DNA from: Nanobdellati archaeon
GTDB lineage: Archaea > EX4484-52 > GLR71
Direction of reading: 5' to 3'
DNA length: 63,561 nt
NCBI GenBank assembly: GCA_019429005.1
Contig: JAHYJR010000004.1
Location: 77,700-141,260 of the forward strand
This document shows positions 21,001 through 30,000 of the stretch, one piece after another; the stretch's first letter is position 1, and every line of letters begins with the position of its first letter. A program made the position numbers.

Positions 21001-24000
21001 GCTCTATGTGTGGAGTTTTTGGAAAAACTGATGTGGTAACAGTTCAAGATTTAAGAAAAAGATTCCAAGATGCTGTTGGACACGAAGTTAATTTGTATAA
21101 TTATGGAGATAATGAAATCAAAGATAGAACTGTTGCTGTTATTGCTGGTGGCGGAAACGATGCAGATATGCTTGAAGAAATCGCCAAAGCAGGAGTTAAT
21201 ACTTTTGTAACTGGAATTACTGTTAAAAATGATCACTCCAAAAAGGCACATGATTTTGCTGAAAAACATAGAATAAATGTCCTTGGCGGAACTCATTATT
21301 CTACTGAAAGATTTGCTTGTATATCGATGGTTGATTATTTTAAGAAAGTTGGGTTACCTTCTGAGTTTATTGAAGATAAACCTGTAATGGAAGATATGTA
21401 AGATTTGCCCCTTTAATTCTTTTATTTTATGTATCGCTTCGCTCTTGGACGGCTGATTTCTGAACTCAAAATCCTTCGGATTTTGCCACGCTGCGCTCTC
21501 CTCTTTTCAGTCGTCGGGACAGATAACAGGGCTTAAACGGAAAATGCCTCAGCTCGGCATTTTCCCAAATTTCTCCCTGCGGTCGCAACTTCGTTTAAGC
21601 CCAATGTTATACGCAATTAAATTTTCACTAGTCTAAATCTCATTTTTCTTTTAAAAAAAGAAACAAAAGAGAGGGAGTCCAGGTGCTACGCACATATTGC
21701 CTTTTACTTCGTAAAAGAAATCTATTAAGAGGGGGCTTTTAAGATAGTCTTTTTCTACGAAAAAGAAATTTTTCGGAATAGCTTTAGAAAACTTATTAAA
21801 TGTGAACCTTTTTATACTTAATATGGGAAGTTTAATTATGGGTGAAATAAAAGAGGGATCTGCTTTTGGTAATTTTAATCTAAATGGTTCAAATGGTGAT
21901 TTATATAAATTATTAAATAAATTAGGAAGATTACCTGAAAATTTTGATGAAAAACCATTATTAAATCTTCTTAATCATCAAAGTGACAAAGTAAGATTTT
22001 TGGTTGTAAAAAATCTAGCAAAATTATCAAAATTTTCTTTAATTGAAACCTATATCAATCTAATTAATAATGATGAAAGTTCAACAGTTAGAAGAGAAGC
22101 GGCATCAGCAATAGGTAGACTAAGAAATTCAAATGCTAAACAAACAATGTTTAATTTACTTAATGATAATGATCCTGAAGTAGTTTTACAATCAATTAGA
22201 GGGTTACTTGTTTTTAAGAAAGATGAAGATGTTAAAAATAAGTTATTTAGTCTAAAAGAACACCCTAATGAAATAATCCAAGAAGTAGTAAAAAAAGAAT
22301 TCAAATTAAATAATAATCCTATAAGCAAAGATGAAGATCATACAAAATCTCCCAATTTTATGAAAAATGCAGTAATTCAAGGAGATGTTAGAGAAACACT
22401 TAAACTTGTTCCAGATGAATCAGTTCATTTAACTTTTACTTCTCCGCCTTATTATAATGCAAGAGATTATTCAACATATAAAAGTTATCAAGAATACTTA
22501 GATTTTTTAGAATCTGTTTTTAAGGAAGTTCATAGGGTTACTAAAGAGGGGAGATTTTTCTTGTTAAATACTTCCCCTATAATTATTCCAAGGGTGGGTA
22601 GACAATATTCTAGTAAAAGATATCCAATCCCTTATGATATCCACCCACTTTTAATAAAAATGGGTTGGGAATTTATTGATGATATTGTATGGGCAAAACC
22701 TGAGGCAAGTGCAAAAAATAGAAATGCTGGTTTTCTCCAACACAGAAAACCATTAGGATATAAACCAAATGCTTGTAGTGAATGTGTTATGGTTTATAGA
22801 AAAAAAACGGATAAACTAATTGATTGGAATATAAAACAATATGATAAAAAAATTGTAGAAGAGAGTAAAATAAAAGGAGATTATGAATCTTCAAATATAT
22901 GGAATATTGATCCTACATTTGATAAAACACATAGTGCTGTTTTCCCAATCGAACTATGCAATAAAGTTATTAAATTTTATTCATTTAAAGGAGATTTAGT
23001 TTTTGATCCATTCGCCGGAAGCGGAACTTTTGGCAAATCGGCTATAAATTTAAACAGATTTTTTTTCTTAACCGAACAAAAGAAACAATATGTAGACAGA
23101 ATAAAAGAAAATATGAGTCAAAGTAAAATATTTTCAGATAATAATTTAAAACCAAAATTTTTAAACATAAACGAATTTGAAAAGGTAATAAAAAAATGAC
23201 AATAACATTAACTGAAGCAGTAGCAAAAAATATCATTACTAAATTGATAAATGGAGAAGATTATAGAATAGAAATAGTTACACTAATTAATGCCGAATTT
23301 TTACAGTATACTGTTGATTTCTTTAAAAAAATTGTAGAAGCAAAACTAAGAAACAAAGACATAACTGTTGATTGGTACAAAAAAGAATTTTTAGATGAAA
23401 ATCTTACATCAGAAGAAATAGCAATAAATTCAGGTTTAAACAAGAAAACTATATCAAATATGTATAATTCTGCAACTAAAGAGATTGTAATTGAAGCCTC
23501 AAAAGAACACTATGAAGAACTATATCAAGCCATACAAACTTTAGTAGATGGAGAAAATGAACTTAACATAACGCTCACTTTAAAATTTAAAGGAGTTAGT
23601 GTTGATTTAAATGTTAGTGAAAGTTTGATTGTAATAAATACTTTAGCTGTAAAACGAGCAGCATTAAGAGGCGGACTATGGAGTACCGCGGGTAAAAGAG
23701 TTGAAAAACCTTTAATGCAAACTCTATGTAAAATTTATAATGTTAGTGATGAGAATTACAAGGTTAAAATAAAAAGTAAAATCAAAGGTAAAGTTGATTT
23801 TGTAAGAGAAATCGATTTCTATTTAGTTAATAACGGACAAAACCACAAATGCGAAGTTAAACTAATGGGCAAAGGAAACCCTGAAAGTGCAGACGCAGTA
23901 ATAGCAAGGGATAGTAAGGTTTTTGTTGCCGATAAACTTTCCGATACAAATAAAAAACAATTAGACAGCCTTAAAGTTGAATGGGTTGAAATGCGAGATC

Positions 24001-27000: not shown

Positions 27001-30000
27001 TGTGCTTTATCTAAAACTCTAATCAAATCATCACGAGAAACAAGTTTTAAATCTTTATCCGGGTCGCCCTTGATAAATTTATATTTTGGTGCTTGTCCGT
27101 ATCGCTCTGGAATATCTGCAATAACATTTTTTTCTCTTTCTCTTTGTGTAAATCCAGAAACATCAAAAGCAGTTCGTGTAGTTCCTGCAACAACAATCGC
27201 ATATTTCGCTCTCTTGCTGTTTGCGTTTCCAAACGCTTGTTCTATTGCTTGTTTAAATTCTGCGTCTGTAATTCCATCTTTTTTACATTCAACAATCAAA
27301 TAATCTTTTCCATCTTTATCATAAACAACAATATCGGCTCTATCGTCAGGTATTCGTCGCTCAACTTTTACTTCAATATCAATATTTTCTTTAGGGTATT
27401 TTTTATCCAAAACTAACTCAACAAAATAAGAAGCCCTTACTTTTTCTTCTGGATTTGTAAATGTTGTAGAATACTCACGCTTACAAAAATAAGTTATTCT
27501 CTTTTTATCATCAGAAAGTTTAATGATTTTTTCTTTAAGCCCTCGATCAACATTTTCCATGAAAATAGTATTATTATCAATATTATTATCTTCACTCATT
27601 TTCTCGCCCCCTTTTTCATCTGTTCTTCCATCATAATTTCTACTTGGCGAGAAACTAATAAACCTTTCTTCTTGCAGAAATCTCTATATTTATCATAAAT
27701 TTTTGAATCAACACGCAAAGTTATATTTTTTGAATCCATTTTAACCCCTATTAATTTTTTCGTAACTATTTTTAATAAGTGACATCACAAGAGGCAGTTC
27801 TTCTATTTTTGAGATGGTTACTTCATAATCCAATGCTCCCCAATGTCCAATCTTTGAAACATCTCTTACAATATCATTATTCAAATCATTTTTTGATAAG
27901 TTAAGATATAATTTTATTTTTTGCTTTTTGAAAACAAAATACGCAAAATTTATATTACTTTTAAAAGCGATATATTGCTTTTTTGGAAGAATCTCAATAT
28001 TATCATCAATTGCTAAAATCTGATTTTTTAATTCGTCATATAATGATTTTGTTTCATCTGAAGAATTATTTAAATGGTCTTCTTCAGTATAAACCTTTAC
28101 TTCACTACTTACTTTTTGAACAACACTACTTTTTTTACTGATTTTGTTTATTGATTCAGAATTTTCATGTGACCTTAATCTTGTATATTGAATTAAATCG
28201 TTTTCATATTTTGATATTTCCCATAATTCAATAGGTAAATCCTTAAAATTTATTGCTTGTTGTTGATATTTTGAAAAAGCAGGAGAAACAAATAAAACTC
28301 TTGATTGCGACCAATCAACATTTTCTCTTTTCAAATTCCTATCGCAATTCTCATTATATTCCAAAATAAAATCTGCTTTGTTATTAAGCATTAAAGAAAG
28401 ATAAGCATAACCTTGATCTATTACACTAAAATTTTTATCTCGCTTATATTCAATAATCACAAAACTATTATTTTCATTATCGTAAGCAAGAGTATCTATT
28501 CTTAGTCCATTTAAAGAAAATTCTGATTTAACTATTTGTAATCCAAATATATCGTTTAAGTTTTTCTCTGTTAAATCTTGAATTTCTTTTTCCAACTTAA
28601 AAGATAATTGTTTAATTCTGTTGAGTTTATTAGTTGAGTTTTTGAAGATTGCCATCTTACTAATACAAATGAAATCAAATATTTATAAATGTATCGCTAA
28701 AACCGTTTTCTTGCCCTAATGTTCTTTTAGAAAAAGAACTAAAAGCCCCCCTCTCGTCCTTCGGACATATACACTCGCTACGCTCGAAATTTATCTGAAC
28801 CTAAATACAACTCTTCGGGATTTTTTCACTTCGTGAAAAATCGTTGCACTATCCCTCGGTCACTTCGTGACGCAACTAACAGGGCTTAAAGGGTTCGCTC
28901 GTTGCACTTCGCTCTCTCAAATTTTTTGCTACGCAAAAAACGTCCCTTGCCCGATGTTAAGTGCAATAATTTTTAGGGGCTCATAATACTAGATGTGGGC
29001 TTTGGATTATTTATTTACTCTATGTAAAAATTCTGTTTATTTAGAAGATTAAAAGGAAGCTCTGGACGATTTTCAGATTTGAAATATTCTTTCATATATA
29101 ATTTAATTAATTCCTCTTTTGAGATACCATAAATTTCTTCAGTTATTTTTCCCTCAATAATTCTTCTTTGTTCTTCCTCCCTACCAAGAACAATTACAGT
29201 ATTTCCTGAACCAGATCCCTTTTTATATATATTTTCCTTTGCTTGTTCTAGCGTACAATTTTTTACATCAAATATATATGTCACTGAAAGAGGTCCAGAA
29301 TCCCAACTAAAATTAAATTCCCACAAGTCAAAAAATATTTTTTTTTCATTAGTATTTTTATCTTCATCAGACCATAAAAATGAAATAAAATACTTTTTAT
29401 CTTCTAGACTTGATAGCTTCATTCTTCCTGCCGGTCCCGCAGACTCAGTAGTTATTATTGAATAAAGATTTTTTATTGAAGCAGAATCATATCTAGATAA
29501 AACGGTTTTATTATTATCACCCATTACAGTTTCAATTCCTTCTTTAGGATATACAATTAATCCTGTATTTCTAAATTTTATTAATTCTGGATTAAAAAAT
29601 GACATTATATTATTATACAACAAGCTCTTTATAAATTTTCTGATTTTGACTACACTATTTAGTAGTTATTCTATTATTCTAGCACCAAAGCCCCAGAAGT
29701 TTTTTATATGTGTCGCTATGCTCCCTACCACCCCTAAAAATAACTGAGCCTTCGGCTTTTTTTCTTGCAGAAAAAACACATAACAAGTGCTTTTAAAGTT
29801 TCGCTACACTTCACCTAGCTTTTCTTAATGATTTTCTTTAATTCACGTCTAAATCTTTGTGCTCTTTCCAGAGATGTTTTTGCTTTTGATTGGACTAATA
29901 CGTCACCCATATTATAAGTAAAAGTTCCTCTTTTCTTCTTTTCAAAGAAATAGTCTTCCATTAATTCATCGGCTTTCAGTTTTCCAAGAAGTTCAGCAGC

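Follow-up and report, generated by a model that had tools for sequence, protein, structure and literature searches.

Integrons are defined by the integron integrase IntI, the tools that detect them rest on IntI together with canonical attC sites, and the IntI-specific insert is thought to be essential for reading the folded attC. Among the Xer enzymes there is precedent both for the use of folded single strands and for the movement of discrete modules: XerCD recombines the folded single strand of CTX phage, and Acinetobacter plasmids have pdif modules that exploit Xer. In this work we analyzed a stretch of 63,561 nt from a Nanobdellati archaeon (GenBank assembly GCA_019429005.1, contig JAHYJR010000004.1, positions 77,700 to 141,260 of the forward strand; hereafter ‘the window’), which contains repeated hairpins between genes. 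It is probable that these hairpins are attC-like sites separating mobile cassettes, in an array that is integron-like and is served by no integron integrase.

The account in PMC5027507 defines attC sites by AAC/GTT ends (consensus RYYYAAC/GTTRRRY), a central spacer that leaves 5-6 nt unpaired in both arms between the R and L boxes, and extrahelical bases near L'', which in the recombined bottom strand lie in the arm without the AAC triplet; the interior of the site, termed the variable terminal structure, is described there as conserved in structure but not in sequence. The archaeal integrons of Ghaly et al. 2022 were found with tools for IntI and attC, and the report states that most of them lack IntI and that canonical clusters of attC sites without an integrase (CALINs) occur in Nanoarchaeota (PMC9668308). 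For the Xer system a dif site with 11-bp arms and a 6-bp spacer is described (PMC2958812), and archaeal XerA is reported to act at a single duplex dif site which does not adjoin its gene (PMC2958812, PMC3646895). We found no description of arrays like the present one in the literature on archaeal integrons, XerA/dif and DPANN cassettes. The sites of the window share their core, their boundary logic and their strand bias with attC, so that the two are relatives in principle and not unrelated; comparative sequence evidence supports a new variation on the integron principle, with recombination as its putative function.

Architecture of the array

The window has a GC content of ~30% and belongs to genome G000 (other G numbers denote relatives), an assembly of 1.08 Mb rated 93.55% complete. 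Its gene content is archaeal (L21e, Rpb4, an archaeal-type Pus10 and DUF655 are encoded in the window), and the DPANN label of the preliminary description is consistent with the assembly size. Between the gene for arginyl-tRNA synthetase (ArgRS; 18370-20253, - strand) and ~31125, genes alternate with repeated hairpin-rich spacers. The cassette array extends from 20440 to ~31125 and exceeds the range of 21521..28962 first assigned to it. A full repeat unit measures ~250 nt and consists of an ~80-nt element, here called X, followed by linker hairpins and then by the site. The features of the array are given below, where S1, S2 and S3 are the complete sites, D1 to D3 are repeat families and R1 is a covariance model built from the four-helix structure of typical copies.

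20440..20479, + strand: attI-like start site of the array, with a decayed short hairpin ahead of AACTTGTTA-TCT-GTAAT
20470..21609, + strand: cassette 1, NIF3/DUF34 gene (ATG at 20550, stop at 21401) with degenerate X element and linker, closed by S1
21519..21617, + strand: site S1 (attC-like), TAACA to TGTTA at 21524-21609; R1 56.3 bits, fold
21646..21720, + strand: X element copy 1, start of cassette 2; direct repeat family D1
21802..24119, + strand: cargo of cassette 2, a type II restriction-modification pair
21802-23199, + strand: HEAT-N6_N4 methylase of cassette 2; Pfam PF01555, 3e-38
23196-24119, + strand: CfrBI-like endonuclease of cassette 2; Pfam PF09516, 3e-22
24137..24263, + strand: X element copy 2 (24137-24218) and linker hairpins ahead of S2; repeat families D1-D3
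24264..24356, + strand: site S2, TAACA to TGTTA at 24269-24348; R1 104.5 bits, fold
24376..24452, + strand: X element copy 3, start of cassette 3; families D1/D2
24463..28655, - strand: cargo of cassette 3, a type I-like restriction-modification block; Pfam PF01420, PF02384, PF13588, PF18899
24463-25785, - strand: specificity subunit of cassette 3
25788-27599, - strand: HSDR_N-N6_Mtase fusion of cassette 3
27741-28655, - strand: DUF5655 protein of cassette 3
28722..28871, + strand: X element copy 4 (28722-28797) and linker hairpins ahead of S3; families D1/D2
28872..28967, + strand: site S3, TAACA to TGTTA at 28877-28959; R1 54 bits, fold
29015..29623, - strand: open reading frame (ORF) 202, carried by a fourth cassette that has decayed; no family match
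29736..29787, + strand: half-site, linker hairpins and ACACA-TAACAAG; family D3, 92% identical to the left flank of S2
29808..31125, + strand: fossil cassette (ORF195 and the helix-turn-helix (HTH) protein ORF217, both on the - strand) with a truncated X end

Cassette 1 starts at TTA (20469-20471). At its far end the array is decayed: the half-site ahead of the fossil cassette stops after ATAACAAG and lacks its remainder, and the fossil cassette has no closing site and an X element reduced to its first ~35 nt. In the whole of G000, R1 found three sites only (E up to 1).

Structure of the sites

From TAACA to TGTTA the sites S1, S2 and S3 measure 86, 80 and 83 nt, or 94, 88 and 91 nt including N3-GCAAT. 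S1 reads ACAGA-TAACA, an 11-bp stem, a three-way junction, an AA bulge and TGTTA-TAC-GCAAT. S2 has ACGTA-TAACA, a 12-bp stem, the junction, a GA bulge and TGTTA-GTT-GCAAT, and S3 has GCAAC-TAACA, an interrupted stem, the junction, a GA bulge and TGTTA-AGT-GCAAT. We could thereby confirm much of what the preliminary description had reported of these hairpins, namely three complete sites (all on the + strand), a 2-nt bulge of AA, GA and GA, which the folds place on the 3' arm, and TGTTA-N3-GCAAT at every site with GTAAT in the start site at 20467, as recovered by motif search. The further statement that the sites pair almost fully from the core inward did not hold. A stem of 10-12 bp continues directly from the TAACA/TGTTA pairing, and beyond this basal stem of ~16-18 bp lies a multibranch interior of 40-50 nt with a three-way junction, two small hairpins and the unpaired conserved motifs CAAAT and ACTTC; the sites are therefore not almost fully paired. 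The flanking motif TGTTA-N3-GYAAT was seen five times in the window against 0.75 expected, a count reached in none of 100 shuffles, and the three sites together with the start site account for four of these matches. When folded as DNA, S1, S2 and S3 did better than shuffled sequences, with z = -4.6, -4.6 and -2.3 on the + strand and z = -4.6, -4.6 and -2.2 on the - strand.

The sites were also claimed to have a non-canonical build, and this was borne out. In the three folds there is neither an unpaired two-arm spacer of 5-6 nt nor a separate extrahelical base in the L box; in place of these features of attC we observed a bulge of 2-3 nt on the R' arm. The R box differs as well, with ~9 paired nt followed by the conserved KCAAT, and the interior, which is variable in attC, is here a conserved three-way junction with invariant CAAAT and ACTTC. 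No second conserved bulge was found in the folds or in the family structure, and the consensus RYYYAAC/GTTRRRY was not matched (GTTATAC, GTTAGTT and GTTAAGT in the window, GTTATAT as the family consensus). What the sites share with integron attC is the AAC/GTT core at both ends of imperfect hairpins that are arranged in arrays of cassettes.

The family to which the sites belong has a common layout. Its 5' part is composed of ATAACA-R, a variable arm of 10-12 nt, TTCCG, a hairpin with TTGCA loop and CTCCAYCCAAAT; its 3' part is composed of a hairpin with TAC or TTC loop, ACTTC, the second arm, the bulge (GA, ATA, AAA and others) and TGTTA-N3-KCAAT. For 16 typical sites, 94.2% of the cells in the four-helix structure can pair, compared to 35-50% with slid partners, and compensatory changes occur in 15 of 29 pairs; none of 500 shuffles reached any of these measures. 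TAACA and GTTA are invariant across 41 aligned sites, a regular expression found TAAC/GTTA in 56 of 64 R1 matches, and the 3' arm is longer by at least 2 nt in 44 of these 56. The motifs CAAAT and ACTTC stay invariant, and the TTGCA-loop hairpin nearly so, from family to family and in a second phylum. Two other identities were considered and rejected. A miniature inverted-repeat transposable element (MITE) or an element of the IS200/IS605 type does not fit, as the stems vary between copies, the loops are conserved and no transposase lies nearby; RNA tetraloops of the UUCG type do not fit either, as the loops are 3-nt TTC/TAC/TGC, i.e. GNA on the opposite strand.

Distribution of the family

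A DNA search with one spacer gave matches in 34 of 61 related genomes. Scanning with a covariance model, as the preliminary description had proposed, showed the family to be spread over two phyla: R1 sites were found in 30 of the 42 genomes of the window's order, with a maximum of 27 in one genome, and in 39 of 121 sampled genomes of one class in another phylum. The sites form same-strand arrays with a spacing of ~0.5-7 kb. In all four metagenome runs matched to the window, bins over the spacers reached 10-100 times the depth of the cargo genes (summed contigs), and the repeats are therefore common in the environment.

Neighbouring sites and the place of crossover

The 5 nt ahead of TAAC in a site are reverse-complementary to the 5 nt that follow GTTA in the preceding site, and not to those that follow its own GTTA. 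Within the window the match is 5/5 from the start site at 20467 to S1, 4/5 from S1 to S2 and 5/5 from S2 to S3; the start site's GTTA with the 5 nt that follow (GTTATCTGT) is the reverse complement of 9 nt at the 5' edge of S1. No partner was present within the window for the 3' extension of S3 or for the half-site. The match from start site to first site is 5/5 also in G124 and G127. For evaluation of this rule we counted over alignment columns, taking 5 or more of 6 positions as a match and comparing with 10,000 permutations. In the order, 28 of 35 consecutive pairs match, 15 of them perfectly (permuted mean 5.6, maximum 14), and in the class of the other phylum 11 of 20 match, 9 perfectly (permuted mean 2.1, maximum 8). 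The two ends of one and the same site match rarely, in 4 of 62 cases in the order and 4 of 26 in the other class. Counting by regular expression gave 25 of 31 pairs; this set comprised the 65 aligned matches minus the duplicate L016, which lies inside L065, and minus the 8 of 64 that have no readable TAAC/GTTA.

The ~9 nt of GTTA and the next five bases thus belong to the following cassette, and crossover would therefore take place at or within TGTTA. Integrons follow the same rule: what comes after GTT opens the next cassette and is complementary to the inverse core of that cassette, and their crossover at G|TT lies at a like place. The pattern of complementarity is compatible with crossover at R' as well as at R'', and two homology comparisons favour R'. 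The DNA that follows the G003 start site and the DNA that follows S2 in the window (X copy 3, cassette 3) are 87% identical, and the DNA after the G002 start site is 91% identical over 211 nt to the DNA after an attC-like site of G013; in both comparisons homology starts at TGTTA. In three of the four metagenome runs, contigs begin to match the NIF3 cassette at 20467-20469, which lends weak support because contigs break at repeats.

Strand bias

In 53 of 56 sites the bottom strand is the one with the lower folding energy when DNA parameters are used (mean difference 1.79 kcal/mol, Wilcoxon p = 6e-10), and in the window the - strand is the more stable one in all three sites, by 0.2-1.2 kcal/mol. 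All three loops are GNA on the bottom (-) strand, GCA together with GTA or GAA. With one junction pair excluded, there are 48 A.C cells, each equivalent to G.T when read on the bottom strand, and 26 G.T cells. Integron attC shows the same bias towards the bottom strand and GAA loops in the account of PMC5027507, in which this strand is also richer in G:T pairs and has a purine loop, so that stability of this strand and GNA/GAA loops are shared by both kinds of site.

Covarying helices with conserved unpaired motifs are also what structured RNAs display, and the repeats could be structured non-coding RNAs or transcription signals, such as terminator or insulator repeats of the repetitive extragenic palindromic (REP) kind, whose recombination-like features would be incidental. 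The X elements, which lead from a T-rich hairpin to a TATA-like AT-rich end, could drive transcription through the site, and the summed depth of the repeats is very high in four of four metagenome runs. We consider this explanation highly improbable. No Rfam family matches the sites, by gathering score or at E up to 10, the GNA triloops lie on the strand opposite to most cargo genes, and the DNA energies favour that strand. In addition, an RNA gene would not be expected to show the complementarity between neighbouring sites, the breakpoints at TGTTA, or the inter-family cassette and the recombinase neighbourhood described below.

Recombinase genes and the start site

G000 contains no match to PF00589 and no tblastn match to 27 related recombinases. 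Its sequence therefore cannot identify the enzyme, and the array of the window, with no tyrosine recombinase assembled in its genome, is an orphan. The housekeeping XerA type, present in 36 of the order's 42 genomes, was not found in G000 either, and the missing tyrosine recombinase may reflect either an assembly gap or a real loss. A crude pattern scan of G000 for a dif-like 11-6-11 site returned nothing convincing.

We observed PF00589 matches in 36 of the 42 genomes of the order. For nine contigs, the distance between recombinase gene and nearest R1 site is listed below.

G041:C78, 179 nt
G027:C50, 186 nt
G041:C65, 909 nt
G027:C82, 1059 nt
G014:C65, 1886 nt
G032:C16, 2293 nt
G016:C28, 4016 nt
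G013:C1, 5611 nt
G013:C45, about 8600 nt

Six recombinase genes thus lie within 2.5 kb of a site, where rough arithmetic from site counts and genome sizes gives less than one by chance. G014:C40 and G037:C117 have broken recombinase genes next to sites. Of 10 genomes of the other phylum that were checked, 3 share the neighbourhood (G127:C12, G124:C17 and, with a decayed gene, G084:C11).

The array-side proteins are of the Xer family. Against the XerA model NF040815 (cut-off 220 bits) they score 257.7, 249.7, 201.9 and 198.5 bits, two of the four being above the cut-off; their best solved relative is XerA (4a8e), to which they align continuously. All 17 aligned proteins keep the catalytic residues R-K-H-R-H-Y. 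For the array-side protein of G027, the alignment with the integron integrase 2a3v covers residues 5-199 and 242-318 of the latter, with only 2 residues in between, so that the gap falls on chain residues 200-241, the IntI-specific insert. With the IntI model TIGR02249 (cut-off 265 bits) none of the 42 genomes of the order reached the cut-off; neither did 14 control genomes, which leaves this search with no positive control. The four whole array-side proteins score 171-221 bits, and all listed matches are split around profile positions ~180 and ~237. The preliminary description had suggested a divergent IntI or another tyrosine recombinase and had asked whether co-occurring enzymes carry the I2 insertion; on sequence grounds its suggestion is supported, as the arrays of the relatives adjoin XerA-like genes, and the products of these genes lack the insert of roughly 42 residues.

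In a tree of 27 XerA-like proteins, drawn from 42 strong PF00589 matches, two groups were separated with 99/98 support. Group A has 12 members, among them all five from site-free genomes, and a single member has a site within 10 kb. The 15 members of group B all come from site-bearing genomes (11 source genomes); 9 of them are beside a site and 3 more beside a start site. Compared to XerA/dif, we have a separate paralogue group that adjoins multi-copy hairpin sites, while the housekeeping-type group occurs also in genomes that have no hairpin sites. TTA-N3-KCAAT is 11 nt long, the length of a Xer-binding arm, and it may serve as such.

Beside group B genes the start site takes the form of a short perfect hairpin followed by (C)TTGTTA-N3-KCAAT; a start site that is itself a short hairpin is a difference from integrons. 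It stands directly after the stop of the group B gene in G003, G002, G036, G025, G041:C65 and G016:C28, and just upstream of the gene start in G013:C1, G124 and G127. Positions 20440-20479 of the window are the homologue of this site, with a slightly decayed hairpin. In a search of five relatives with the 3-kb stretch from ArgRS to NIF3, the sole match was 68 nt just after the recombinase gene of G003. In the window, 190 nt of non-coding DNA and ArgRS stand in place of this gene, and tblastn revealed no remnant of a recombinase gene upstream of the start site. Between G002 and G003 the platform is syntenic and the first cassettes differ, as is the case for the conserved platform and variable cassettes of sedentary integrons. 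Integrons and the present family hence have in common a conserved platform of recombinase gene and start site with variable cassettes, the adjacency of the recombinase being seen in the relatives only.

In G027:C82 (L074, 5742-10818) the recombinase gene sits between sites, and a weak third site (34.5 bits) follows genes for FtsZ and a glycosyltransferase. This array may flank its platform on both sides, or the weak match may be spurious.

The position of this gene of G027:C82 also fits another reading, in which the sites are true cassette junctions but the housekeeping XerA or an unknown enzyme acts on them, as happens with elements that exploit Xer; the group B genes would then themselves be cargo, or belong to integrated elements. 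Most genomes have a group A XerA, 3 of the 15 group B genes have no site nearby, and there are long contigs with arrays but no recombinase (G159 with 6 sites, and G139). We nevertheless regard this as unlikely, as group B genes in two phyla have the conserved start site directly at their end or their start, all 11 group B genomes have sites while 5 of 12 group A genes come from site-free genomes, and the decayed recombinase genes of G014:C40, G037:C117 and G084:C11 are still beside sites.

A second possibility is that the sites are ordinary attC sites of a CALIN on which a true IntI acts in trans, missed by fragmented assemblies. The AAC/GTT core, the boundary rule, the length of 80-86 nt, the stabler bottom strand and the GAA-type loops are all traits of attC, and the CALINs reported from Nanoarchaeota and the general scarcity of IntI in archaeal integrons (PMC9668308) are in line with it. 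However, the unpaired central spacer and the L-box extrahelical base are absent, the interior motifs are invariant, none of the 42 genomes reaches the IntI cut-off, all matches skip the IntI-specific region, and the neighbours of the arrays are XerA paralogues. Furthermore, the Nanoarchaeota attC tested by Ghaly et al. is given as a canonical site of 59 nt, and the motifs CCAAAT and AATTTGG are absent from the data files of that study, a statement that does not extend to its figures S1-S3 (PMC9668308). An explanation by ordinary attC sites is in our judgement quite improbable.

Cargo and transfer between families

Positions 29818-31118 of the window, with ORF195 and the HTH protein, show 89.4% identity over 1303 nt to a cassette of G032, a genome of another family, in which the cassette sits between two sites. 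The 3-kb stretch from ArgRS to NIF3 had no housekeeping match in the five relatives (E up to 1e-5). By these sequence comparisons, cassettes are exchanged between families.

The cargo of the window consists of NIF3 (assigned by Pfam PF01784, 7.8e-29), the type II restriction-modification pair, the type I-like block with the DUF5655 protein, and proteins that belong to no family. The NIF3/DUF34 gene is usually counted as housekeeping. Taking the relatives together with the distal ORFs of the window, 29 of the 47 ORFs in cassettes lack a Pfam family at 1e-5, and GmrSD, HNH, DUF4365 and assorted enzymes are among the remainder. With integrons the family shares this character of the cargo, mostly of no known function and with some defence genes, and in both orphan arrays are common; it differs from them in that ORFs are often opposite to the array, cassettes measure up to 4.6 kb and ~80-nt X elements stand at both cassette ends.

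Some further observations concern single cassettes. Near-identical copies of the NIF3 cassette (20470-21609) occur in three unrelated metagenome runs, with 12-18 differences in 450-604 nt, and these copies start matching at the cassette boundary. In cassette 3 the type I-like methylase (25788-27599, - strand) carries an HSDR_N_2 domain at its N-terminus, the DUF5655 protein (27741-28655, - strand) stands where a recognisable HsdR motor subunit would be expected, and an ORF of 44 aa lies between the two.

X elements, inside-out modules and other genes

The X element (~80 nt) is found beside every cargo, at both ends and in constant orientation. It consists, in order, of a T-rich hairpin (TTCTTTT..AAAGAA), a G- or C-rich run, a GTCC-TTC-GGAC hairpin and an AT-rich, TATA-like end. 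The run is G-rich in copies that open a cassette and C-rich, at the same position, in copies that close one. The element is kept in other families (G003, G027, G032), and the truncated copy of the window lies near 31093-31125. Possible roles are those of a terminator/promoter module or of a binding site.

An inside-out version of the site was observed in three genomes in the ~190-nt leader after the start site or the first site. In this module ACTTC and the 3'-type arm come first, and TAACA, the 5'-type arm and CCCAAAT come afterwards. Its copies are the following.

L024:640-870, - strand: inside-out module
L024:6290-6530, - strand: inside-out module
L069:2480-2710, - strand: inside-out module
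L028:4940-5170, - strand: inside-out module

Outside the array the window contains an ORF of 3708 aa (50531-61657, - strand) with no Pfam family, in a stretch of higher GC content (0.35-0.39), and an ORF of 1554 aa (11638-16302, - strand) with TSP3, Big_9 and fn3 repeats. Both probably encode surface proteins.

Discussion

Our findings lead us to propose that a group B XerA paralogue, whose genes stand beside the array starts with a full catalytic set, would excise and insert the cassettes. Its substrate would be the folded bottom strand, which is the - strand of the window, and the enzyme would read the 11-nt arm TTA-N3-KCAAT, the bulge of 2-3 nt and the conserved junction instead of the spacer and the extrahelical bases of attC. 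Arrays begin at the short hairpin with TGTTA-N3-KCAAT, and the array of G000 is an orphan that has partly decayed at its far end. We are somewhat inclined to go further and to see here a second kind of integron in small-genome (DPANN-type) archaea of at least two phyla, in which a XerA paralogue gene and the hairpin start site beside it form a platform for taking up and reshuffling cassettes, with folded sites built around a three-way junction and with no IntI insert. Its array-side recombinases would be set apart from IntI by this insert and by scores below the cut-off of the IntI model.

A number of observations weigh against this proposal. No recombination event was directly seen; the best metagenome run held at most 0.12 of the sampled words, and the contig joints lie within repeats. 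G000 has no recombinase, hence nothing here indicates that the array of the window is active. The complementarity between neighbours fails in 7 of 35 consecutive pairs in the order and in 9 of 20 in the other class, and neither the X elements nor the inside-out module are accounted for by a cassette model. Unlike in integrons, the orientation of ORFs is only weakly tied to that of the sites (29 same and 19 opposite among 48 ORFs of the relatives). With regard to the recombinases, the related genomes in the tree are not independent, two of the three group B genes that have no site nearby lie on contigs of 2.3 and 6.8 kb, and a label test on the tree was weak, with 7 changes against a shuffled mean of 8.3 and 92 of 500 shuffles as low. 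As to the strand, the junction pair excluded from the count above is G.T in 33 of 64 sites, which favours the top strand, and the rule by which integrons choose their strand would make the top strand the substrate.

If a XerA paralogue does recombine these sites, structure-specific cassette recombination would have arisen more than once or would predate IntI within the Xer family, and the arrays would represent a compact new system of this kind. They would also offer a natural test of which site features are needed for the recognition of folded DNA, with bulge and junction on one side and spacer and extrahelical bases on the other. Archaeal cassette arrays would have been under-counted. For the window itself, the proposal would explain why two restriction-modification systems and NIF3 are placed between repeated hairpins beside ArgRS. 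The arrays would move defence genes and even housekeeping-type genes such as NIF3 between archaeal families, and small symbiotic archaea would thereby gain a known route for the exchange of defence systems and other genes.

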